DNA of 48,415 nucleotides. It comes from an uncultured Nitrososphaerota archaeon (GTDB lineage Archaea; Korarchaeota; Korarchaeia; Korarchaeales; Korarchaeaceae). The position numbers and the translations under genes were made by a program. Positions 9,094 through 35,875 of this stretch are shown piece after piece (within the stretch, counting starts at the first letter, position 1; each line of letters opens with the position of its first letter). The notes beneath the pieces are model-generated. The model saw only the letters and a list, made by a program, of their open reading frames with translations, made no database searches and was not told the DNA's origin. Location: NCBI GenBank assembly GCA_964594835.1, contig CAZQNA010000011.1, positions 1 through 48,415 on the forward strand. Direction: 5' to 3'.

Positions 9094-9717
9094 CTAGCCG
9101 ACCCAGCTCCTGTACCTCCCCCTCCTCTCGACGGCCTCCAGCCTGACCAGCACGAGGTCTGGCATGGGGGCCGTCTCCCCGTAGCCCGAGAGGAACCTCT
9201 GGAAGAGCCCCGGGGCCTTCTCGGGGAACAGGGCCTCCAGGGACTTCTTGAGGACGTGGAGGTCCACGGCCATGTCCTCCTCGCTCTTCGAGAACTCCCC
9301 GAGCCCGAAGTCAATGAGGCAGGTCCTCCCCCCCTGGACGACCACGTTCAGCGGGGTCAGGTCGTTGTGGACGACGCCGGCAGAGTGCATCAGGCCGACC
9401 TGCCGCCCGAGGTCCTCCATGACCTCCCCGATGTCCCCTCCGCCCCGGGAGAGGAGGTCCAGCAGCGTCGGGCCCTGCACCATCTCCAGGAGCAGGGTGT
9501 CTCCCCAGACGTCCAGCACCGCCGGGCACCTCACCCCGCGGCCCTTGAGCCTCATGAGTATCCTGGCCTCGAGCCTCGTCCTGGAGGTCCTTATCCTCCA
9601 GTCGAGGTCCGGGTGCCTGTAGGCCTTCTCCACCCTCCTCTTCTCCACCGCGGGCAGCCCCCAGACGTCGACCTCGTAGACCTCCGCCTCGGCCCCCCTG
9701 TGGATCAGCCTGGCCAT
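9094..9717 (-). CDS. bud32: KEOPS kinase Bud32
   Basis: GAEAEV, KAYRHPDLD, RTRLEAR, HNDLT, LIDFGL, RGRY. Confidence 0.93.
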   Translation of the reverse strand: MARLIHRGAEAEVYEVDVWGLPAVEKRRVEKAYRHPDLDWRIRTSRTRLEARILMRLKGRGVRCPAVLDVWGDTLLLEMVQGPTLLDLLSRGGGDIGEVMEDLGRQVGLMHSAGVVHNDLTPLNVVVQGGRTCLIDFGLGEFSKSEEDMAVDLHVLKKSLEALFPEKAPGLFQRFLSGYGETAPMPDLVLVRLEAVERRGRYRSWVG

Positions 9718-10407
9718 CCGTACCTCCCCCTCAGCGGCACAAACGCGACCGGGGTTATCTCCGCCCTCTTGAACCTGCCCTCGCCCTCCTTCTCTATGAC
9801 CACCAGCACCTGACCTCCCCACCAGGAGGGCTCCCCGACGGGGATCACCATCCTCCCGCCGACCTTCAGCTGCTCCAGGAGGGGCTCCGGGGGGCCGGGA
9901 GCCGCCGCGGTCACGAGCACCCTGTCGGGCCTCACCCTGAGCGGGAACCCCGCGCTGCCGTCCATGGCGAGCACGGTGACCCTGTCGGAGTAGCCCGCCC
10001 GCCTGAGGTTGGACCACGCCCTCCTGGCGAGCGAGGGGACTATCTCCGCGGAGTAGACGTGCCCCCACTCCGCCGGGTCCCCCTCGGCCGGGGCCACTAT
10101 CTCCGCCACGGTGGCCGCGTGGTACCCGCTGCCGGCGCCCACCTCGAACACCACCATCCCCCTCCCAAGGGCGAGGAGCTCGTCCATCATGAACACCATG
10201 TGTCGCCCGGCCTCAGCGGCCGTGTGGCGCGCTGATGGTCTGCCCCTCGCCTATCGGGAGGGGGGTGTCCCGGTAGGCGTCCCTCCTGAGGTGCTCGGGG
10301 ACGAACTCCTCCCTCGGCACGGCCAGGGCGGCCCTCCTCACCTGGGGGGTGCGGATCACGCCCATCATCTCCAGCCTTTTTACGAGCTCGGCGCGCTCCT
10401 CCTCCAG
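9705..10407 (-). CDS. pcm: Protein-L-isoaspartate O-methyltransferase, interrupted by a 22-nt BHB insert (10202..10223)
   Basis: [27 protein letters not shown] | [47 protein letters not shown]. The start is uncertain: CTG at 10407 follows GGGGAGGGG. The spliced product would be 226 aa. Confidence 0.92.
10202..10223 (-). other. Candidate mRNA intron with canonical bulge-helix-bulge motif
   Basis: G-CGCC-AC^A-CGGCC-GCUGA-GGCCG-GGCG-AC^A-C; removal gives GCG CCA CAC AUG (A-P-H-M). Confidence 0.85.
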
Positions 10408-10452
10408 GGTCCCCTCCCCCCGCGCGGGTGGGGTCTCGGGGAGGCTATAGAG

Positions 10453-16443: not shown

Positions 16444-16539
16444 TGGCGGGCCCGGGGGGACTCGAACCCCCGACCTGCGGCTCGCCCCGGCCAGGGCCGT
16501 AGGAGGCCGCCGCTCTAATCCATGCTGAGCTACGGGCCC
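16444..16539 (-). tRNA. tRNA-Arg(CCT) with 17-nt intron at 37/38 (16483..16499), CCA encoded
   Basis: GGGCCCG acceptor stem; GCGGC-CTCCTA[intron]A-GCCGC; CTCC/GGGG central helix with 3-nt bulges; TTCGA T-loop. Confidence 0.93.
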
Positions 16540-19717: not shown

Positions 19718-20980
19718 ATGCTCCTGCTCTTCGAGGACGAGGGCGCCGCCCTGCTGAGGCCCCCCGCCGACCTGACTCCGGTCCACGAGCTGGTGATCGG
19801 GAGGGAGACCATCCTCCAGAGGGTCAGGAGGCTCTTGAGGTACGAGGGGGAGGTCGCGAGCCTCGTCAGGCCGCACCTCGTGCCCAAGGCGAGGGACTCA
19901 GAGGCCCCTCCCCTGGGCGGGGCCGAGGAGGAGGTCCTAGCGGTCAACTCCAGGTGGGTGATAGGCGAGGACGAGGCGAGGCTCGCGCTTTCGCTGGACG
20001 CGGGGGAGGCCCTGGCCGCCCCGAACGGCGCGGTGCTCTGCGCCAGGCTGAGGCCCCGGGAGGTTGACGAGGTCCTCCCTCCGGGGAGGGGCGGGGTCTC
20101 GGGCGTGAGCCAGGCCCTTCACGCCTCGGCGGAGAGGGTGAGGGTCCTCGAGGGGGCCGAGCTGATCTCCCACCCGTGGGACCTGCTCCACGCCGCCCTG
20201 GAGGCCCTCAGGGAGCCGGTGAGAGCCGAGGGGTCAGCAAGGGTCCCGGATCGCGTGAGGGTCCTGGGAAACCCGGGGATGCTCTCGATGGGAGAGGGGG
20301 TGGAGTTCGAGGGCCCCGCCGTGCTGGACGCGAGGGGGGGCCCGATCCACCTGTCGGAGGGCGTCACCGTGGGGCCCCACGTCACCCTCTCCGGCCCCCT
20401 GCACGTGGGTCCTGGGTCGGTGATCCTGCCGGGGGCCCAGGTCTCCAACTCCTACGTGGGCCCGGTCTGCAAGGTGGGCGGGGAGCTGGCCGACTCCGTC
20501 GTGCTCGGGTACAGCAACAAGGCCCACTACGGATACGTGGGCCACAGCTACGTCGGCAGGTGGGTGAACGTCGGCGCCGGGACGGCGACGTCGGACCTCA
20601 AGAACACCTACGGGGAGATCAGGAAGACCGTGGGGGGCAGGAGGATCGGGACGGGCACGATAAAGCTCGGCTCATTCCTGGGGGACCACGCGAAGACCGC
20701 CATAGGGGCCATGCTCTACACCGGCCTGTTCGCCGGAGCCGCCAGCCACCTGCACGGGTTCGTGCTGGAGGACGTGCCGCCATTCACCATCTACGCCGTC
20801 ACCCTCGGCTGGGGCAAGGTGGAGCTGGAGCTGGAGTCCGCGATCAGGACCTACGAGAGGATGGCCGCCAGGAGGTCCGTCAGGCCGTCGGAGGGTGAGG
20901 AGCAGTCCATGAGGCTGCTGTTCGAGCTCACCCGAGGTGAGAGGGACGGGGCTGGGGTGAAGAGGGGCAGGATCAGGTGA
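19718..20980 (+). CDS. Putative sugar-nucleotidyltransferase (GlmU-like, with left-handed beta-helix)
   Basis: LLFEDE, PWDL, LDARGGPI, NKAHYGYVGHSYVGRWVNVGAGT..SDLKNTY. Confidence 0.85.
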   Translation: MLLLFEDEGAALLRPPADLTPVHELVIGRETILQRVRRLLRYEGEVASLVRPHLVPKARDSEAPPLGGAEEEVLAVNSRWVIGEDEARLALSLDAGEALAAPNGAVLCARLRPREVDEVLPPGRGGVSGVSQALHASAERVRVLEGAELISHPWDLLHAALEALREPVRAEGSARVPDRVRVLGNPGMLSMGEGVEFEGPAVLDARGGPIHLSEGVTVGPHVTLSGPLHVGPGSVILPGAQVSNSYVGPVCKVGGELADSVVLGYSNKAHYGYVGHSYVGRWVNVGAGTATSDLKNTYGEIRKTVGGRRIGTGTIKLGSFLGDHAKTAIGAMLYTGLFAGAASHLHGFVLEDVPPFTIYAVTLGWGKVELELESAIRTYERMAARRSVRPSEGEEQSMRLLFELTRGERDGAGVKRGRIR

Positions 20981-21058
20981 TGGTGCGGCCGCCGGGATTT
21001 GAACCCGGGTCTGGGGCTCGGGGGGCCCCAATCCTAGTCCAGGCTAGACCACGGCCGC
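20981..21058 (-). tRNA. tRNA-Gly(CCC), CCA encoded, atypical C33
   Basis: GCGGCCG acceptor; GGGGC-CCCCCGA-GCCCC; TTCAA T-loop. Confidence 0.9.
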
Positions 21059-21125
21059 ACCGTCCCTGGAGGGGCGGGCAGGTCATAAAAGGTTTGTGGC
21101 GGAGCCGTGAGTAGGCCGGGAGGAG

Positions 21126-21204
21126 TGGCGGGCCCGGCGGGACTTGAACCCGCGACCTCCGGCTCCGCAGGCCGGCGCTCTGATCCATTCTGAGCTACGG
21201 GCCC
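21126..21204 (-). tRNA. tRNA-Arg(GCG), CCA encoded
   Basis: CCGGC-CTGCGGA-GCCGG. Confidence 0.95.
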
Positions 21205-21359
21205 GGGCCTACGAGGCGCCCTGGCTATTTAACTGTAGACCGCCTCCATTTAGGTCATTAAGAATAAGGGGCTATCCACGAGTAAGTTTTTATTAAGTAA
21301 AAATAAGTAGGATTTGATTGTCCTGATGCTTTCAAAATTTTAAAGTCAGGTTAGCACAA

Positions 21360-22241
21360 TCATAGCCTTACCCTAACTATGTGTTTCCTTCCTCCGGTAG
21401 GGGCGGGTGATAGAATATATTCAATCTTTCGGAGAGAAGATAGCTTTCTCACAATAAATATGTGCTCCTTTATCTCGAGATCTAACCCCAATTTCAGGTT
21501 TATCTTATCAGAGATATCCTCGAGCGCAACGAATTTCCCCCCAGATACCTCTTTTAGGACCTCTAAGTAGTGATCCAGCAAGGTTCTAGGGTGAGGAATC
21601 CCTTCCATGACTTCTGGGTTGATCACGAGCCAGTCCCCCTCTACCTTTATTAGATCAAGCCCTAAGGATCTTAGAAACTTCTCCAAGGAGTAGATAGCCC
21701 TCCTAAACCCCCTAATTGAAGAGACAATCATATTGGGTGGAACTCCAGATTCCCTGAGTTCCTTCTCAGTAAGGTTAGTAACATCTCTTAGAGGTACTTT
21801 CTTTAGATTCAATCTAACAAGATCCCAGATAACAAAGGGCCACACTGGAGAATTCTTAAAGAAGGAGATTTTCGGATTTCTCACATCATCGGACACTTTG
21901 GCTAGGGCGCCTCGGGGCCAGGACGGTGTCCTAGACCAGTGAATCGGGGTCATGTATCCCCGCACCTGGATATAAAGAGATGGTTCAACAAGTCCAGCTC
22001 TTCTTAAATCATTTACTACTTCAGACCTATTTGAGTTTTTCCATTTCTCAATTGACCTAACTAATATTAAAAGTTCCTCTCTCTCAAGAAATTCCGACGG
22101 CGGGAGCCTACTAGCGACTTCGCTCACTACACCATTCCAATCTAGCCTGAACCTGAGCGGATTGAAGTATCTATTGAGAGCTGAGGCAGTATTCTCTGCT
22201 TTTCTAGCCATTTCAGAAATCTTTTTAAGCACCTCTTCCAC
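21360..22241 (-). CDS. Hypothetical protein (island)
   Basis: 293-aa ORF in AT-rich DNA, divergent from the ATPase operon. Confidence 0.7.
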   Translation of the reverse strand: MEEVLKKISEMARKAENTASALNRYFNPLRFRLDWNGVVSEVASRLPPSEFLEREELLILVRSIEKWKNSNRSEVVNDLRRAGLVEPSLYIQVRGYMTPIHWSRTPSWPRGALAKVSDDVRNPKISFFKNSPVWPFVIWDLVRLNLKKVPLRDVTNLTEKELRESGVPPNMIVSSIRGFRRAIYSLEKFLRSLGLDLIKVEGDWLVINPEVMEGIPHPRTLLDHYLEVLKEVSGGKFVALEDISDKINLKLGLDLEIKEHIFIVRKLSSLRKIEYILSPAPTGGRKHIVRVRL

Positions 22242-22300
22242 AGGAGGAAGAACTGCCGTAAGAGATTAAAGCATTCCTCGAGATTCTCAGCGGGGGGCAT

Positions 22301-23875
22301 ATGCGCAGAGCGCTAGAATGGGAAAGATACTGTCTTAGTGAGGACCCCTTTTTCCCTCTTGAAGCAGAGAGAAGGGTGGAAAGAGGAAAACCAGTAGTTC
22401 TGGTTGGATATGGCAGAGAGATAGCTGAAAAAATGCTCGGAGAATTAAGAGATAGAATGAATAACGGAGAATTCTATGGGTCATTTCTTTATGGATTGAG
22501 AGGGATCGGAAAAAGTGCTATACTACTGAATTTGATGCAAAAAATTAAAGAGAAAGATCCCAATATCGATGTAAAGTACATAAGAATAGACACTCCTTGC
22601 TATAATCTTTCAGACCTCATATCATTCCTCTCAGATGAACTTGGAGTAAGGAAAGGTTCGGTGAATTCGGTAGAAGCACTAACAGGCATGCTTAGGGAAG
22701 TCAGACCCATAGTTCTTATGCTGGATCAATTTGAAAACTTTGATCCGGAAGAGGAAGAACTAGAGAACTTCAGGAGGGTTCTTAGGGAGGTCACTGGCTT
22801 AGAACGTGTGGGTCTGATAATCTCTGTCACAAGTGAAGCCTACGCCTCTATTATCCCAAGCGAAGAACACAGAAGTTATCTGAGAACCTATGACGCGTAT
22901 GAAGTACGGCCTCTGGCCGCACCTGAAGAGGCTGAAGACTTACTTAGGACTCTGATGGATCCTCTCAGGACGGAAGAGCGGTGCCGAGGGAAGCTTTACC
23001 CATTCAAAAGGGAAGCTGTGAAGGCTCTACTGGTACTTTCTCGAGGGATCCCCGGAATCTTGATGAAATACTGCTCAGAATTACTTCGGGAAGGACTGGT
23101 GTCTGAGGTAGAAGAGATAGGTAGATACGAAGTCTTGGTGCTCACTAGGCTATATGAACCGGAATGGATAGACTACTGCAGAAAGACCATCAGAACAGCA
23201 GCTCGGGGACAGACCGTCCTAGCAAATGGTCTAATGATGCTAGAAGAGGTAGTTAGATTCGCTGGAGGTCTAGAGGAAATAAACGGAATCCTAGTACTTC
23301 CCCTTTATAGAGAGGGAAGAAAAGATGAAGAGAGCATCAGGAGTTTAGCTAAAATAATAAGAAGAAAGAAAGGAGTTGGAGAATCCAAGATAATTGAACT
23401 ATTTACTGGTGTAGGTAAACTTGCAGATTCCGCTATCTTGGTAAATAAAGAGAATATGGAATTTGAACTCATACTAGTTAGGTATGTGAGGCGAAGGGGG
23501 CTTAGGGAAATGGCCGAATCTCTCGAGCGAGTATCAGAACTCCTAGAGAGCGTAGTGTATGGTGGGAGAGAATACTCGCTTCAAAGCGTAAAAATGGTCC
23601 TCCTCCTAAGAGGAGAGCCTCCCCCCTCTCTACTACAGAGAATCAAAGTTGCTGGTGGGATTAACGGAATAACGGTTTTGACGCGAAAATTTGAACAATG
23701 TGCCGATCCGGCTCTATATGGTGCTACCCATGTCCTCTCAAGCTACTGGGAAGATATGAAGAAAGAGAGCATTGGACTAGAGGATCTTCCCTATCTTGAA
23801 TTTCAAAAACTCCTGAGAGCGTCGGAGAGTGTGCTCAGCAGGCTAGGTGCTGTAAGGAGGGTAGAGGAAAGGTGA
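22301..23875 (+). CDS. P-loop ATPase (AAA+/STAND-like) with uncharacterised C-terminal half
   Basis: Walker A GLRGIGKS, Walker B VLMLDQFE, SRGIPG motif. Confidence 0.85.
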   Translation: MRRALEWERYCLSEDPFFPLEAERRVERGKPVVLVGYGREIAEKMLGELRDRMNNGEFYGSFLYGLRGIGKSAILLNLMQKIKEKDPNIDVKYIRIDTPCYNLSDLISFLSDELGVRKGSVNSVEALTGMLREVRPIVLMLDQFENFDPEEEELENFRRVLREVTGLERVGLIISVTSEAYASIIPSEEHRSYLRTYDAYEVRPLAAPEEAEDLLRTLMDPLRTEERCRGKLYPFKREAVKALLVLSRGIPGILMKYCSELLREGLVSEVEEIGRYEVLVLTRLYEPEWIDYCRKTIRTAARGQTVLANGLMMLEEVVRFAGGLEEINGILVLPLYREGRKDEESIRSLAKIIRRKKGVGESKIIELFTGVGKLADSAILVNKENMEFELILVRYVRRRGLREMAESLERVSELLESVVYGGREYSLQSVKMVLLLRGEPPPSLLQRIKVAGGINGITVLTRKFEQCADPALYGATHVLSSYWEDMKKESIGLEDLPYLEFQKLLRASESVLSRLGAVRRVEER

Positions 23876-24879
23876 TGTGGAGATCTATTAGATTCGAAGC
23901 AGATCTGAAAATTTCTTCAATTCTCTGCCGAGAACTATCCAATGAAAGAGCACTTTCGTTATCTATTGCGACTAGAATACTTTCATCGCTGGGATATTAC
24001 GTCCCGCCAGTCACAGACTATCCCATTGTGCTACTCAGCGGGGTCACAGGAGAGAAATATCCATTTCACATAGTTGGGAGAGTATGGCCGCCTCGGACAG
24101 AACAAAGTGGTAATTTGCAAGATCCCTATCATGGAAGATTTGACCTCTTAGCTACCATTGATAAGCTGGGGGCCTTCCCAGGAAGTCCTCTATTCATGGT
24201 GTGTGAAGTAAAGAGAGAGGAAGCCTTAAGAAGTGGAAAAATCCCAGAAAAGATAGAAAATCTCACAGATGCCTTCGGAACCGGTCTACATATCATAGTA
24301 CTCTCGGGGGGATGTCACTCAAAAATCCCCACCTGGGAAATGACTGAGCGAACTCTAAAGGGGTGGACGGGTCCAAGTGGCCCGCTCAGCAAGAGAAATG
24401 TGATTTTGGCAAATTTCGCGCTTGAGGAAAGTGGAATGGGTTCCGGGATATGTCACGTAAAGGTTATTTGGAGGTATAAGAGATACACCAAAGATGAAGC
24501 AAAGATACTTTTTTATGCTATATCCTCAGTCCTTGCCAGAAGGTTCCCCGGAAAAAAGGCAATAGTCCCTGGGCATGAATCTCTATTAAAGCTCGACTAC
24601 TTTAGGAGGGAAATAGGCTTAAGCAGCCATCTTCAGCATGCTTCTGCTCAAGCTATCTTCAATTTTATACTATTTCTGCACCACGGGACCGCTGTGCTAG
24701 AATCGGGCCGTCGAGAACTTTATCTCTCCGATGCAAAAGAAATCGTTCAAGCATGCCGCGATCTTATAGATTCTCTTAAATCAGGAGTGGATATGCCTAT
24801 AACTCTTCCACCAGATATAAGGAGTAGAATGTCCTTAGTTTTATCAAAGATGGAGGAGCTCTCAGGTGGGGTTAGGTGA
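23872..24879 (+). CDS. Hypothetical protein with possible PD-(D/E)XK nuclease fold
   Basis: GRFDLLA...FMVCEVKR; GTGA overlap with the ATPase gene. Confidence 0.55.
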   Translation: MMWRSIRFEADLKISSILCRELSNERALSLSIATRILSSLGYYVPPVTDYPIVLLSGVTGEKYPFHIVGRVWPPRTEQSGNLQDPYHGRFDLLATIDKLGAFPGSPLFMVCEVKREEALRSGKIPEKIENLTDAFGTGLHIIVLSGGCHSKIPTWEMTERTLKGWTGPSGPLSKRNVILANFALEESGMGSGICHVKVIWRYKRYTKDEAKILFYAISSVLARRFPGKKAIVPGHESLLKLDYFRREIGLSSHLQHASAQAIFNFILFLHHGTAVLESGRRELYLSDAKEIVQACRDLIDSLKSGVDMPITLPPDIRSRMSLVLSKMEELSGGVR

Positions 24880-25604
24880 ACTCTCTAGCCCTAAGGGAAA
24901 TAGAGAGGGCAAGGAGAGAAGGGAGGCCAATTTTAGTAGCGTTTAGTGGGGGAAAAGATTCATTAGCTGCTCTTACGCTTGTTTCAGAGGTAGTTCCATC
25001 TGGTGGAGTTGAAGCTTTCATTGTTGAGGTTCCCGGAAACACGCATGTCGAGACCATAAGATACGTTAAGGAGGTCTCAGAGAGATTTGGGGTTGAGTTA
25101 AGGGTTCTACGGGCTGATCAGACCATATGGGAGGCCATTAGAAAATGGGGTTTCCCAAGTCCGAGAAGAAGATGGTGTGCCACATTTTTCAAAATGAAAG
25201 TGGTTAAGAAGTTCTTAAGCGAAAATTACGAAGAAATTCCGTTAGTTATCACAGGAGAAAAGAGGAGCGATTCGAAGAGGAGGAAAAATCTTCCCCCGAT
25301 CGAAAGGAGAAGAGATTGGGGACAGGTTACAGTTCATCCTGTATTAGAGTGGACGGACGAAGAGGTTATAAGATATTTAACCAAGAAAGGCGTAAACATT
25401 TGTCCGCTTTACCACAGAATAGGAGCGTCTGGTGGATGCCTCTATTGTCCCTTTAAAACAAAACGAACCTACTGGCTAGCCGTTGCGCGAGAAATCCCAT
25501 GGATCGTAGAAAAGATATCCTCACTCGAAGAAGAGACTAGAGGAAAAGCTTTCTTAATTAAGGGAAAGCCGGTAAGCATAAGAGAATTAGTAAAAGAGCC
25601 GTGA
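24876..25604 (+). CDS. PAPS-reductase family protein (DndC/SspD/CysH-like)
   Basis: VAFSGGKDS PP-loop, RRWC, GEKRSDSKRR, HPVLEW, GCLYCP. Confidence 0.9.
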   Translation: MNSLALREIERARREGRPILVAFSGGKDSLAALTLVSEVVPSGGVEAFIVEVPGNTHVETIRYVKEVSERFGVELRVLRADQTIWEAIRKWGFPSPRRRWCATFFKMKVVKKFLSENYEEIPLVITGEKRSDSKRRKNLPPIERRRDWGQVTVHPVLEWTDEEVIRYLTKKGVNICPLYHRIGASGGCLYCPFKTKRTYWLAVAREIPWIVEKISSLEEETRGKAFLIKGKPVSIRELVKEP

Positions 25605-25738
25605 ATTCCATTTCTACTTAGATCATCTATTAGTGATCCTCTGCTGAATGCCTGGCTTAAAAATATTACCACAGGAAGAGCTTTAATGCACATATGCTCA
25701 TTCAATATCCAGAAAAGCAAGAAAATATAGGTGAGGAG

Positions 25739-25903
25739 TCATCTCCTGGCGAGCTTCGTCCTCTTCAGCCTGAGGTTCTTGCTCCTGCAGCGCCTGCACT
25801 TGGTGGCGCTCACGGGGTTCCGGGCCCCGCAGCGCCTGCAGATCTTGTAGCTGAGCAGGGCCTTCTGGGCTATCCGTCGCTTCACTGGATCCTCTATGGG
25901 CAA
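25739..25903 (-). CDS. rpl40e: 50S ribosomal protein L40e
   Basis: KICRRCGARNPVSATKCRRCRSKNLRLK; TTG start. Confidence 0.95.
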   Translation of the reverse strand: MPIEDPVKRRIAQKALLSYKICRRCGARNPVSATKCRRCRSKNLRLKRTKLARR

Positions 25904-25966
25904 GTCTAAGACCTCCCCGGCCCGGCCCCCCTTGCGATTCATAAATATTAGCCCAGCCCGATAACG

Positions 25967-26320
25967 GTGGGAATGTCCAGAGTCGACGAGGTCTCCCAGC
26001 AGATAGTGAGGATGCTGGAGAGGGGGGAGACCGTCCACCTCAGGCTTCTCCTCCAGAGGCTCCCGTACGGCCTGAGGGAGATCAAGAGGGCCCTGGCCAG
26101 GCTGGAGGCCGAGGGCAAGGTGGAATCCTTCAGGCACGGGGGCTACACGTTCTACAGGCTGGCCGGGAGGGGTGAGGAGGGGGAGGAGGAGTGGTCCTGG
26201 CCGAGCCCCGCGGGCGCCGGGGCGTCCGACGCTGAGGATTCCTCGGAGACCCAGTCAGGGGCCCCCGGTGCGGAAGGAGGGGAGGGCCCCGGCTCACCTC
26301 CTGAGGAGGCCGGAGAGTAG
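25967..26320 (+). CDS. Small winged-helix protein with acidic tail
   Basis: REIKRALARLEAEGKVESFRHGGYTFYRL. Confidence 0.65.
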   Translation: MGMSRVDEVSQQIVRMLERGETVHLRLLLQRLPYGLREIKRALARLEAEGKVESFRHGGYTFYRLAGRGEEGEEEWSWPSPAGAGASDAEDSSETQSGAPGAEGGEGPGSPPEEAGE

Positions 26321-27175
26321 ATCGGGGATCTCGAACGGAGTCCTGGCCACGGGTATTCCCGCCTCGTTCAGGGCCCTGAGCTTCGAGTCGTAGGTCCCCC
26401 TGCCGCCCGAGATTATCGCGCCCGCGTGGCCCATCCTCCTGCCCGGCGGGGCGGTCCTGCCGGCGACGTAGGCCACCACCGGCTTGGGGTAGTGGGTCGA
26501 CATGACGTACTCGGCCGCGTCCTCCTCGGCCCTCCCGCCGATCTCCCCCACCAGGACGACCGCCTCGGTGTCCTCGTCGTCCCTGAACATCTCGAGCACG
26601 TCCGTGAAGCTCAGCCCTGTGACGGGGTCCCCGCCTATCCCGACCGTGAGGGGGGTGCCCATGCCGCGCCTCTTCAGGGAGAGGGCTATCTCGTAGGTCA
26701 GGGTGCCGCTCCTGGAGACTATCCCAACTCCGCCGGGGGCGAAGACGTCCCCAGGCATGATCCCGAGCTTGACCCCCTCCCTCGGGGCAATTGCCCCGGG
26801 AGTGTTCGGGCCCACTATCGTGGCCCCCCTGAGCCTGGCGTACTCGACGAACCTGGAGGCGTCGTGGACGGGGATGTGCTCCGTTATCACGACCACAAGC
26901 CCTATCCCAGCCTCGAGGGACTCCATGACCGCGTCGTAGGCGAAGGGGGCTGGGACGAACACCACAGAAGCGTCCACGGGTCCGACCTGCTCCACGGCCT
27001 CCTCGACCGAGTCGAAGACGGGGACCCCCTCGACCTCCTGTCCCCCCCGGCCCGGGGTCACCCCCGCCGCTATCTCGGTCCCGTAGGCGAGCATGAGCCT
27101 GGTGTGCGTCCGGCCCTGGCGGCCGGTCGCCCCCTGGACGATGACCCTCATTCCCCTCCTCAGGAGCGGAGGCAT
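26294..27175 (-). CDS. sucD: Succinyl-CoA synthetase alpha subunit
   Basis: VQGATG, ITEHIP, GPNTPG, SRSGTLTYE, GIGGD, GEIGG, MGHAGA. Confidence 0.95.
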   Translation of the reverse strand: MPPLLRRGMRVIVQGATGRQGRTHTRLMLAYGTEIAAGVTPGRGGQEVEGVPVFDSVEEAVEQVGPVDASVVFVPAPFAYDAVMESLEAGIGLVVVITEHIPVHDASRFVEYARLRGATIVGPNTPGAIAPREGVKLGIMPGDVFAPGGVGIVSRSGTLTYEIALSLKRRGMGTPLTVGIGGDPVTGLSFTDVLEMFRDDEDTEAVVLVGEIGGRAEEDAAEYVMSTHYPKPVVAYVAGRTAPPGRRMGHAGAIISGGRGTYDSKLRALNEAGIPVARTPFEIPDLLSGLLRR

Positions 27176-27235
27176 CTCGACCCCGGCCCGTCCAGGCTCA
27201 CAGGCTTTAATTGTTCGTTGCCCTCGGGCGGTGCG

Positions 27236-28366
27236 ATGAGGCTCCTGGAGCACGAGGTCAAGGCCCTGCTGGCGGAGGCGGGCATACCCGTCCCGAGGGG
27301 AAGGGTGGCCAGGACGCCCGAGGAGGCCAGAGAGGTCGCCAGAGAGCTCGGCGTGCCCGTCGCGGTCAAGGCCCAGGTCCCGGTGGGCAGGAGGGGGAAG
27401 GCCGGCGGGATAAGGCTGGTGAACACCCCCGACGAGGCGGAGGAGGCGGCGAGGGCCATCCTCTCCATGGAGGTGTGGGGCCACAGGCCCGAGTCGGTGC
27501 TGGTGGAGGAGGCAGTCCGGGTCGGGGCGGAGCACTACCTGGGGACCATCCTGGACAGGTCGGCCAGGAGGATGGTCCTGATGACCACCCCCTACGGCGG
27601 CATGGACGTGGAGGAGTCCGCGGCGATGCACCCGGAGGCCATGGCCAGGGTCGAGGTGAATCCCCTCGTCGGCCTGGCCCAGTTCCAGGTCAGGAAGCTC
27701 GCGTGGAACATCTCGAGGGATCCGGAGGTGGTGAAGCAGCTCGCAAGGGTTATATCGGCGTTCTGGGATCTGGTGGTGAAGCACGACCTCCTGATGGCGG
27801 AGATCAACCCGCTGGCCGTGACGGAGGACGGGAGGGTTCTGGCGCTGGACGCGAGGGCCGAGGTGGACGACAACTCCCTCTTCAGGCACCCGCAGTTCTC
27901 CAGGAGGGCCCACTCGACCAACCCCAGGGAGAGGATGGCGGAGGAGGCCGGCGTCACCTACGTGGAGCTGGACGGCGAGGTGGGCACGATGGCCAACGGG
28001 GCCGGCCTGGCGATGGCGACCATGGACCTCGTGGCCGAGGCCGGGGGCAGGCCGGCGAACTTCTGCGACGTCGGCGGGGGGGCGTCCGCGAAGGCCGTAG
28101 AGGCGGCCATGAGAGTCATCACGTCCAACCCAAGGGTCAGGGTGGTGCTGGTCAACGCCCTGTGCGGGATCACCAGCGGCGAGGACGTGGCCAGGGGGAT
28201 AGCAGGGGCCGTCTCCAGCCTGGGGCTGAGCCCCGACGCGCTGGTTGTCAGGCTCGAGGGGTTCAAGGCGGAGGAGGGGGCCGAGATACTCAGGGAGGCG
28301 GGCATTGAGGTCTACAAGGACCCGATGGAGGCCGTGAGGGAGGCCGTCAGGAGGATCTCGGGGTAG
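27236..28366 (+). CDS. sucC: Succinyl-CoA synthetase beta subunit
   Basis: MRLLEHE, KAQV..GRRGKAGG, EINPL, NGAGLAMATMD, PANFCDVGGG. Confidence 0.95.
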   Translation: MRLLEHEVKALLAEAGIPVPRGRVARTPEEAREVARELGVPVAVKAQVPVGRRGKAGGIRLVNTPDEAEEAARAILSMEVWGHRPESVLVEEAVRVGAEHYLGTILDRSARRMVLMTTPYGGMDVEESAAMHPEAMARVEVNPLVGLAQFQVRKLAWNISRDPEVVKQLARVISAFWDLVVKHDLLMAEINPLAVTEDGRVLALDARAEVDDNSLFRHPQFSRRAHSTNPRERMAEEAGVTYVELDGEVGTMANGAGLAMATMDLVAEAGGRPANFCDVGGGASAKAVEAAMRVITSNPRVRVVLVNALCGITSGEDVARGIAGAVSSLGLSPDALVVRLEGFKAEEGAEILREAGIEVYKDPMEAVREAVRRISG

Positions 28367-34408: not shown

Positions 34409-35623
34409 CTAATCAGGTCTGCCCTCCGCCTCAATCCTCGGGAGGGTTAGGCTCACGGCCAGGGCAAGCGCCTCCAGCCCGGCGGAGGCGGCGAAGGCGA
34501 CCTCCAGCCCAGGGCTGGACAGGAGTCCCGCGAGGGCGGGCCCCAGGGCCCCGAAAGCCCTGGTGAAGGTCCCCTCTATCGCCACCGCCTTGCCCCTGTC
34601 CTCCTCCGGGAAGGCGTCCATCGTGTAGGCCAGCAGGCCGGGGGAGAAGAGGGGCATCAGCGCGCCGGCCAGTAGGGCGCCGTAGAAGAGTACCGGGATC
34701 CGGGGGGTCAGCGTCAGGCACGCGAAGACGGATGTGGCGACGACGTAGGTCGCGGAGTAGAGCCTCCTCCTGTCCACCCTGTCCGCCAGCGCCCCGCCTG
34801 CGAGGGACAGGATGGCGCGGGCGGCGTACCCGGCGGAGTAGGCGGAGAACATCTGCGTGGCGGAGAGGCCGACCGACTCGCCGAGTAGGGGGACCAGGGG
34901 GTAGGAGCCGTAGGCCAGGGCGTCGAGGGACTTGATGACGCAGAACCTGGCCAGCAGCCCGCGGTTCGCCATGGAGCGGAGGTCGGACAGCGCCGAGAGG
35001 GGGTTGAACCCGCCCGAGCCCGAACCTGAGCTCGGCCTCCCCGAGCCGTAGCGTGGGAGCCTCAGGGTGGCGAGTCCGGCCAGGGCGAGGGGGAGTCCGG
35101 CCAGCGCGAAGGTCCACCGCAGTCCGAGCCTCGAGGCCACCAGGGCCGAGCCGGCGGTGCCGAGGGCCATGGCCGAGGAGAGCAGGAGGCCCCACACGCC
35201 GAAGGGGAGGCTCCTCCCGCCGCTCAGCCTCGCCAGCATGGGGGCCGTCGGAATCCTGGCCACCGACCCTGCGGCGTAGGAGGCCAGGTAGAGGGCGGCA
35301 GCGGCGGCGACCCCGGAGGCCGCACCGAGGGCCGCTGAACCGAGGCCAGACGCAATCGATCCTAAGGCCAACTGGATAACTCCCCCGAGCCTGTCGGCCA
35401 GGACCCCTGCAGGCACGCCGATCGCCATGCCCAGGATCCTGGAGGCCGAGACGAGGGCGCCATAGGCCTCGGCGGAGGATCCGAGCTCCCTCAGGTAGAG
35501 GGGGAGCGACACGCCGACGACAGACCTGGAGAGGGCGTCGGCGAAGATGAGGAGGTACAGGGTAAGGAGCTCCGGCGTCAGGATCCCCCTGACCCTCAAC
35601 CCGTCGCCCTCCGGTCGAGCCAA
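34409..35623 (-). CDS. MFS transporter
   Basis: GVLADRLG and GALADRVDRR motif A copies; about 12 TM segments. Confidence 0.9.
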   Translation of the reverse strand: MARPEGDGLRVRGILTPELLTLYLLIFADALSRSVVGVSLPLYLRELGSSAEAYGALVSASRILGMAIGVPAGVLADRLGGVIQLALGSIASGLGSAALGAASGVAAAAALYLASYAAGSVARIPTAPMLARLSGGRSLPFGVWGLLLSSAMALGTAGSALVASRLGLRWTFALAGLPLALAGLATLRLPRYGSGRPSSGSGSGGFNPLSALSDLRSMANRGLLARFCVIKSLDALAYGSYPLVPLLGESVGLSATQMFSAYSAGYAARAILSLAGGALADRVDRRRLYSATYVVATSVFACLTLTPRIPVLFYGALLAGALMPLFSPGLLAYTMDAFPEEDRGKAVAIEGTFTRAFGALGPALAGLLSSPGLEVAFAASAGLEALALAVSLTLPRIEAEGRPD

Positions 35624-35722
35624 GCGGGACCGCCGGAGGGTGGCGCGAGCGCATTAAACTCCTGAGCGCCTGGAGCCCGGGTCTTCAGAGGCCCTTTGTT
35701 TGGTGGCTGAACACCCGGCCCC

Positions 35723-35875
35723 TCAGTCCACCATCAGGAAGGGCACCCGCCAGGCGAAGAGGAGCAGAGAGTAGCCCAGGAGCGCGCTCAGGCCCCAGGG
35801 CCTCTCGGACCTGGCCACTAGCGCCGCACCCAGGGCGAAGGGCAGGCTCAGGGCGAGCCCCACGAGGTCCTCAGC
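35723..35875 (-). pseudogene. C-terminal fragment of the 39428/40046 membrane-protein family
   Basis: LSLPFALGAALVARSERPWGLSALLGYSLLLFAWRVPFLMVD* versus LSLIWDLGASLAAGSEDPGDWRAALG...LMLD*. Confidence 0.55.

Follow-up and report, generated by a model that had tools for sequence, protein, structure and literature searches.

A predicted bulge-helix-bulge mRNA intron in the protein-repair gene pcm, found at the same site in Korarchaeota-type, Bathyarchaeia and Asgard archaea

The pcm locus and its features

The window analyzed here is a stretch of 48,415 nucleotides (nt) from an uncultured archaeon of the family Korarchaeaceae (GenBank assembly GCA_964594835.1, contig CAZQNA010000011.1). On its minus strand it carries pcm, the gene for the protein-repair methyltransferase PIMT, and the conserved SAPHM motif of this gene, the only pcm of the genome, is split between SAPH and M by 22 nt (10223..10202). 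Reading along the minus strand, GQTISAPH is followed by GGC CGC TGA, the last codon being an in-frame stop at 10215-10213, and then by ATG GTG TTC in another frame; the remaining protein (MVFMMDELL...) resumes from 10199, in a different frame from exon 1. An unspliced reading would stop three codons past the His and give a fragment only. On comparative evidence, the 22 nt are very probably an intron of bulge-helix-bulge (BHB) type, which would be spliced from the pcm mRNA by the splicing endonuclease EndA and the ligase RtcB.

The features of the locus are listed below; the 66 sequences mentioned in the list are the distinct intron-bearing sequences described under geometry.

10224..10395, minus strand: pcm exon 1 (the part matched by the PCMT profile); its last letter is C 10224, the first letter of the His codon
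9705..10201, minus strand: pcm exon 2; it opens with AC (letters 2-3 of the His codon) and continues with 164 codons and a stop
10202..10223, minus strand: putative 22-nt BHB intron, in phase 1 of the His codon of SAPHM, with an in-frame TGA at 10215-10213
G 10230 with C 10200, minus strand: outer closing pair, G-C in 66/66 sequences
10226..10229, minus strand: 5' strand of the central helix, CGCC; it lies in the exon, over the last two letters of the Ala codon and the first two of the Pro codon, and pairs with 10204-10207
10204..10207, minus strand: 3' strand of the central helix, GGCG; intronic
10223..10225, minus strand: 5' bulge, ACA; predicted cut between 10224 and 10223
10201..10203, minus strand: 3' bulge, ACA; predicted cut between 10202 and 10201
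10208..10222, minus strand: inner stem-loop, with a 5-bp stem (CGGCC 10222-10218 with GGCCG 10212-10208) and the loop GCUGA 10217-10213
10195..10199 with 10239-10235, minus strand: possible extension of the outer helix (AUGGU with ACCAU), bridging a 4-nt bulge

The two exons are recognized by the Pfam PCMT profile (PF01135) as separate half-matches, with profile positions 3-60 at 10222-10395 (50.5 bits) and 59-208 at 9723-10205 (113.5-115.3 bits). The half-matches are adjacent, on the same strand and consecutive in the profile, so that together they make up a match to the whole domain. The best PDB relatives are PIMT chains. Since the alignment of exon 2 to a solved PIMT (PDB chain 1jg1_A) starts at residue 79, the break can be placed inside the conserved SAPHM stretch. 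A search of the 24-contig metagenome-assembled genome (MAG) with PF01135 did not find a second pcm; the other matches were weak and belonged to different methyltransferases.

The structure had been described from the letters of this stretch before any comparison was made (the sequence-only reading), and our reading of the minus strand agrees with that description letter for letter. Removal of 10223..10202, with a cut after the second nucleotide of each bulge, restores Ala-Pro-His-Met. In the transcript, the exon letters G-CGCC-AC and the intron would form a helix of 4 bp between two bulges of 3 nt, with an inner stem-loop and a short exon-exon helix. EndA would cut after nucleotide 2 of each bulge and RtcB would ligate the pcm exons, and ligation would rebuild the His codon of SAPHM and with it a continuous PIMT frame. 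We infer cleavage and ligation of the pcm mRNA, and its protein product, from these sequence relationships. The minimum-energy fold includes both the inner stem and the central helix.

Distribution of the insert

Genomes related to that of the window were searched with the PCMT profile. A PCMT domain was found in 31/31 genomes (30 relatives and the genome of the window), in many of them with the same break at profile position ~60. When 29 of the relatives' loci were read, 14 had an insert at the same site, 14 were intronless and 1 was missed by the motif parser. Two of the 14 inserts look uninterrupted to the profile search; these are in frame, one 21 nt long with a TAG and the other 27 nt long with no stop codon. 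In the phylum of the window as a whole (43 genomes, 42 with pcm), the insert is present in 14/42. It occurs in all pcm-bearing members of genera g1 (4/4, including the genome of the window), g2 (5/5), g4 (1), g6 (2) and g7 (2), and pcm is uninterrupted in genera g3 (21, of which 17 were scored intronless from uninterrupted, normal-length profile matches only), g5 (4) and g8-g10 (3).

Beyond this phylum, a degenerate DNA pattern was used to scan one genome per species for 185,579 species, and it returned 45 matches. Of these, 37 are in pcm with the expected flanking motifs, and the other 8 are chance matches in bacteria. The 37 carry the labels Bathyarchaeota/Bathyarchaeia, Thermoproteota ('Kor', vent MAGs) and Baldrarchaeota, and they include a complete Atabeyarchaeia genome and a few unclassified archaea. 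In a separate sample of 151 Bathyarchaeia genomes, 139 of them with PCMT, the same-site insert is present in at least 31/139; the 35 interrupted or partial loci that were read from this sample comprise 31 with the insert, 2 that are insert-free and belong to other PCMT-like genes, and 2 that run off contig ends. For the Asgard phylum, a covariance model built from 11 sequences gave matches in 18/151 genomes, and 12/12 loci that were read show the insert at the same site.

Some labels in these sets are at odds with the sequences that bear them. A contig labelled as a bacterium (Krumholzibacteriaceae; L074) bears a Bathyarchaeia-like pcm with the intron, a locus from the Asgard sample (L124) groups with Bathyarchaeia in the tree, and a locus labelled Nitrososphaerota (L076) matches the korarchaeal genome G009 in its intron and flanking residues. 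In all three cases, public MAGs seem to have been binned or labelled wrongly. A further Bathyarchaeia locus (L117, G089:C40:11400-12500) holds a divergent PCMT-like gene that is cut by an in-frame TAG at another site, near profile position ~97.

Geometry and covariation

The boundaries of each insert were set by protein homology only: the insert was taken to start behind letter 1 of the His codon and to end where the His codon and the motif downstream of it are restored. In all, 81 loci were parsed, corresponding to 66 distinct sequences. All 66 have the complete set of four central pairs, two bulges of 3 nt, boundaries just behind bulge letter 2, and a G-C pair that closes the 3' bulge. An in silico cut after bulge letter 2 rebuilds the His codon and the PIMT frame in 66/66.

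For the central helix, 60 sequences have CGCC/GGCG, 5 have CACC/GGUG, a form that appears again in two Asgard loci, and 1 has CGCC/GGUG. The compensation consists of a synonymous change of the Ala codon in the exon, GCG to GCA, matched by a change of C to U in the intron; the form with a G-U pair (CGCC/GGUG) is the intermediate of the compensatory change. In the covariation analysis, this variable pair is GC in 62 rows, AU in 5 and GU in 1. The 5' bulge is ACA in 58 of the 66, UCU in 4, ACU in 3 and UCA in 1, and its second position, the first letter of the His codon, is always C. In the 3' bulge, letter 2, which would be removed, is variable (A 25, G 19, C 11, T 11), and letter 3, which would remain as letter 2 of the His codon, is A in 66/66 and in 12/12 further Asgard loci; letter 2 in those 12 can again be A, C, G or T.

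The inner stem differs wholly in sequence from one lineage to another, with its pairing kept. When 11 sequences whose introns are 29 nt long are aligned without gaps, 9/9 inner pairs vary on both sides, 97.4% of the cells pair (72.6% in shuffled alignments), and the covariation score is 0.749 as compared with 0.219, a value that 0/500 shuffles reach. When the partners were slid by 1-3 columns as a control, pairing fell to 30-38%, and the covariation score of the actual partners was above that of every slid control. The stem can also be counted without any alignment, starting at its base: the mean is 6.7 consecutive inner pairs versus 0.68 after shuffling (39 sequences).

The sequence-only reading had also pointed to an outer extension of the helix, ACCAU/AUGGU. 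The extension is real in this genome, and 5/5 of its pairs can form in 35 and 4/5 in 27 of the 66 sequences (62/66 together); however, the pairs are mostly dictated by the Thr-Ile/Val and Met-Val codons, the only free letter being the third letter of the Thr codon. The extension was set aside as independent evidence because its pairs are largely forced by coding. At the free letter, pairing is possible in 36/66 intron-bearing genes versus 4/23 intronless ones, an excess that is suggestive and is confounded by relatedness and base composition.

The introns are 20-57 nt long, and their lengths modulo 3 are 0 in 19, 1 in 22 and 2 in 25 of the 66 sequences. The lengths thus fall in all three frames and show no preference for keeping the frame. 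Among the 19 inserts that are in frame, 18 hold a stop codon, so that 65/66 cannot be translated through.

Weighing the explanations

An artefact of sequencing or assembly might be suspected in a window that comes from a MAG in 24 contigs, although the sequence-only reading had judged a structured 22-nt insert to be atypical of sequencing errors. The insert is covered by independently assembled contigs from four public runs, two of them from other samples, and none of these contigs is without it. The contig from run X5 spans 10056-10264 with 0 differences to the window; that from run X19 belongs to a relative, spans 10168-10430 and has one additional base in the loop. With homologous inserts also present in dozens of unrelated assemblies, we give practically no weight to an artefact. 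Real DNA could still belong to a decaying pseudogene that was broken by a 22-nt insertion with structure arising by chance. An in-frame TGA and a frameshift are what such a gene would have, and annotation pipelines would call two open reading frames here. The insert, however, sits at one and the same codon position in 66 distinct sequences, which come from three phyla, its stems covary, the motifs on either side of it are conserved, the gene is the sole pcm in its genome, and PCMT was found in 31/31 of the related genomes searched. Decay of the two halves, which the sequence-only reading had named as a sign against splicing, is not what the substitution rates indicate: for pairs of intron-bearing genes with unsaturated dS, dN/dS is 0.07-0.42 in exon 1 and exon 2 alike, and deeper pairs retain 48-75% amino-acid identity. 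As judged by these ratios, both exons are under purifying selection, and a pseudogene is exceedingly improbable.

Two other explanations accept a functional gene and do without RNA splicing. In programmed ribosome hopping, of which phage T4 gene 60 is an example, the ribosome would bypass or frameshift over the insert, with the stem-loop as stimulator. The gap is short and structured, a stop codon follows soon after the take-off site, and in the window CAC occurs on both sides. A matching CAC landing codon, on the other hand, needs C as letter 2 of the 3' bulge, which only 11/66 sequences have; the gaps of 20-57 nt are spread over all three frames; and neither the conserved EndA geometry of a 4-bp helix with 3-nt bulges nor the compensation in the central helix is required by hopping. 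We therefore regard it as very improbable. It is also conceivable that the enzyme is truly split, with an N-terminal peptide of ~50-65 amino acids (aa) and a 164-aa C-terminal protein that assemble, and with the BHB acting as a cleavage or regulatory site without ligation. Exon 2 does start with ATG, and EndA is known to cleave the leader of a Haloferax mRNA (PMC7714728). Against a split enzyme, a relative of the same genus (L027) has ATT as the first codon of exon 2, another relative (L086) has Ala rather than Val after the Met, and the break lies inside a contiguous active-site motif, SAPHM. It also leaves unexplained why the removed length is free beside a rebuilt His codon that is kept in 66/66. 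Of the four alternatives we find this one the least improbable, and it too is most unlikely.

The preferred explanation, a BHB intron of the pcm mRNA spliced by EndA and RtcB, is directly supported by the structure, by its conservation and covariation, by selection on the exons and by the presence of the enzyme genes. The sequence-only reading had proposed just such an intron and had placed the cuts behind nucleotide 2 of either bulge, so as to give an intact PIMT. Across three archaeal phyla, the comparison of pcm genes strongly supports this, with the insert at the same site and with compensatory changes, and the predicted cut matches the rule given for cbf5 (PMC2738675).

Several observations weigh against this explanation or reduce the evidence that can be counted for it. 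The folding energy of the locus is unremarkable for a G+C-rich region when compared with shuffled sequence (z = -0.66), so that the claim of more structure than chance rests on the comparative data. The outer helix is the weak element of the BHB motif; its contiguous part measures only 1 bp (33 of the 66 sequences), 2 bp (19) or 3 bp (14), and the action of a fused two-unit EndA on an mRNA substrate with so short an outer helix is a prediction only. One in-frame, stop-free insert of 27 nt (L022) could in principle be translated through. A larger alignment of 69 rows, in which all 9 inner pairs again vary on both sides, gave 97.1% paired cells versus 78.3% in shuffled ones and a score of 0.456 versus 0.156 (0/500 shuffles), but the structure guided its fitting, and two weak rows in it (L042, L021) are not introns. 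Likewise, it was the motif that selected both the 37 pattern-scan sequences and the matches of the Asgard model, which leaves the relatives and the Bathyarchaeia sample as the unbiased sets. Finally, among public sequencing runs no RNA run is listed for window positions 9650-10450, hence neither a spliced junction nor an excised intron was seen.

Splicing machinery and a companion intron in cbf5

The sequence-only reading had taken a tRNA-Arg intron in the window as a sign that the splicing machinery is present, and the rest of the genome is in line with this. EndA is encoded as a single 363-aa protein with two endonuclease units (contig C4, L081, 1462-2553, minus strand), the C-terminal one most resembling the catalytic alpha subunits of heterotetrameric endonucleases from Crenarchaeota (3p1z_B, 3ajv_B, 2zyz_B). 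A gene for RtcB is present as well. The tRNA gene in question is the following:

16447..16539, minus strand: tRNA-Arg(CCU), in which ~17 additional nt follow the anticodon

The insert in this tRNA would be expected to be a further substrate of the same machinery.

Outside the window, the same genome has a second interrupted protein-coding gene. Its cbf5 (contig C1, minus strand, ~53095-53075; L084) contains a predicted 21-nt BHB intron with an in-frame TGA. The locus reads GHCGTL-EAL*GRG-DPKVTG, and the codon for the catalytic Asp is split after its first letter. The motif is of textbook form: an outer helix of 3 bp, CCCU/GGGG as the central helix, two bulges that both read AGA, and a stem of GGCC/GGCC. 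The pcm and cbf5 introns are both in phase 1 and both within an active-site motif. Among korarchaeal genomes, the cbf5 intron was seen in genera g1, g2, g4 and g6-g10 (12 loci read) and was absent from g3 and g5 (2 loci read). Genera g3 and g5 lack the pcm and cbf5 introns alike, and their clade includes a genus with a closed genome of 1.6 Mb.

The genome was also scanned for BHB motifs in other split genes, an extension that the sequence-only reading had envisaged. In its first form, requiring open frames on both sides, the scan gave 24,441 candidates versus 21,193 in the reversed genome and was uninformative; with filters on codon-position G+C added, the candidates were still mainly junctions between neighbouring genes. 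A strict version gave 7 candidates versus 2 in the control, and a relaxed one 25 versus 10. Beyond pcm and cbf5, no candidate looked like a single gene cut in two, the flanking translations being judged by eye and introns >70 nt, relaxed motifs and short genes lying outside the reach of the scan.

Evolution of the intron

A tree of pcm was calculated from 97 rows, 74 intron-bearing and 23 intronless; rows missed by the parser (among them 11/20 intact Bathyarchaeia loci), rows shorter than 170 aa and duplicates were left out. The korarchaeal families f1-f3 are united in one clade (support 96), in which the intronless genera g3 and g5 are nested as a single clade (support 96). This points to one loss; the pcm intron was probably lost at least once, in the g3/g5 clade. 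The 48 intron-bearing rows that group with Bathyarchaeia also form one clade (support 96), including the two rows with other labels ('Krumholzibacteriaceae' and the Asgard sample). Nine intronless Bathyarchaeia rows are placed elsewhere in the tree.

The tree as a whole requires at least 5 changes of intron state. Since its deep nodes are unresolved, it fits a single ancient origin as well as several gains. Since Korarchaeota-type genomes, Bathyarchaeia and Asgard archaea share the site of the pcm intron, the intron is either old or repeatedly inherited.

Ends of the pcm gene and neighbouring sequence

The start codon of pcm is ambiguous. The first in-frame ATG is at 10368-10366, yet residues conserved in the genus are found upstream of it (window 10366-10440, minus strand). 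The nearest start-type codon above this conserved stretch in the window is a GTG, ~33 codons upstream. In two loci of the same genus, no ATG, GTG or TTG is found between the conserved stretch and the stop that opens the frame (L029) or for ~35 codons upstream of the stretch (L027). A non-canonical start codon or a shorter protein is possible. At the other end, a gene for a Bud32/RIO-type kinase (9094-9726, minus strand; Pfam RIO1, Kdo and Pkinase) starts ~20 nt before the pcm stop, an overlap that suggests an operon with pcm.

Another tRNA gene, tRNA-Arg(ACG) with an 'intron' of 743 nt, is called at 34988-35825 by ARAGORN in its intron mode and is probably spurious. Positions 20001-28000 of the window have a G+C content of 0.52-0.58, as compared with 0.61-0.70 elsewhere in the window, and adjoin a cluster of tRNA genes.

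Relation to known systems

The intron of the cbf5 pre-mRNA was reportedly first described by Watanabe in 2002. In a 2020 paper (PMC7714728), cbf5 is given as the only other BHB intron of an archaeal mRNA reported until then, besides that paper's own case in a 5' untranslated region (5'-UTR), and as the only one in a coding region. Introns in other protein-coding genes had until then only been predicted, according to Yokobori 2009 (PMC2738675); the same paper gives the cut rule for cbf5, between bulge nucleotides 2 and 3, and a position for the crenarchaeal cbf5 intron that is the same as in our genome. The Atabeyarchaeia genome paper (PMC11291895), which has wetland-soil samples and reports metatranscriptomes, treats introns of tRNAs only. 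The sequence-only reading knew of no described pcm intron, and a full-text literature search likewise found no paper linking pcm or isoaspartate methyltransferase to a BHB intron, subscription journals and supplements being outside its reach.

The cbf5 intron of Crenarchaeota is the closest parallel. Like that of pcm, it is tens of nucleotides long, has a predicted cut between bulge nucleotides 2 and 3 and has a patchy distribution with secondary loss (PMC2738675). Both interrupt the coding frame in a conserved catalytic motif, so that function needs their removal. The hosts differ, one being an RNA pseudouridine synthase and the other PIMT. The cbf5 motif is often relaxed (PMC2738675), whereas that of pcm is near-canonical, with a perfect 4-bp helix and two 3-nt bulges in 66/66. 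The cbf5 intron is described from Desulfurococcales and Sulfolobales (PMC2738675), and the pcm intron is found in Korarchaeota-type genomes, Bathyarchaeia and Asgard archaea. Splicing of cbf5 has been confirmed by cDNA (PMC2738675), while that of pcm is predicted from DNA. Very likely, then, the pcm intron extends the cbf5 mechanism to another host gene; its motif is closer to the canonical one, and its range, with Asgard archaea included, is much wider.

Archaeal tRNA and rRNA introns of the BHB type have the same motif as pcm and presumably the same enzymes, EndA and RtcB. Unlike them, the pcm intron has an mRNA as its host, and the coding sequence takes in two letters of each bulge as well as one strand of the central helix; the structure is for this reason constrained together with the Ala-Pro-His codons. 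In the eukaryotic splicing of XBP1/HAC1 (mentioned in PMC13149111), which is stress-regulated, the endonuclease (IRE1) and the recognition structure differ from the pcm case. It offers an analogy only, with a very short intron taken out of a mature mRNA, a protein endonuclease, an RtcB-type ligase and a change of frame. The HVO_1309 intron of Haloferax volcanii resembles that of pcm in that an mRNA is cut by the splicing endonuclease at a BHB; it lies in the untranslated leader and leaves the reading frame intact, whereas the pcm intron breaks the frame (PMC7714728).

Implications

That expression of PIMT is tied through the intron to EndA/RtcB activity is speculation. A bolder form of this idea is that the intron predates the split of Korarchaeota-type archaea, Bathyarchaeia and Asgard archaea and has been kept as an obligatory EndA/RtcB-dependent gate on PIMT synthesis; it would then be a prokaryotic counterpart, and in Asgard archaea possibly a forerunner, of eukaryotic RtcB-dependent mRNA splicing, and would form with cbf5 a small conserved set of spliced mRNAs. 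We consider this scenario unlikely as it stands.

The frameshifted or split pcm genes of many MAGs would be explained by the intron and would represent an annotation error to be corrected. With a length of 20-57 nt, the intron would provide a compact substrate for studying the action of EndA and RtcB on mRNAs. It would also be a natural system for intron gain and loss; one korarchaeal clade lacks both the pcm and the cbf5 introns. If the interpretation is true, pcm is the second protein-coding gene known to be spliced in this way, and its intron is conserved in three large groups of archaea, among them the Asgard archaea, which are related to eukaryotes; mRNA splicing by the endonuclease would then not be a curiosity of a single gene.

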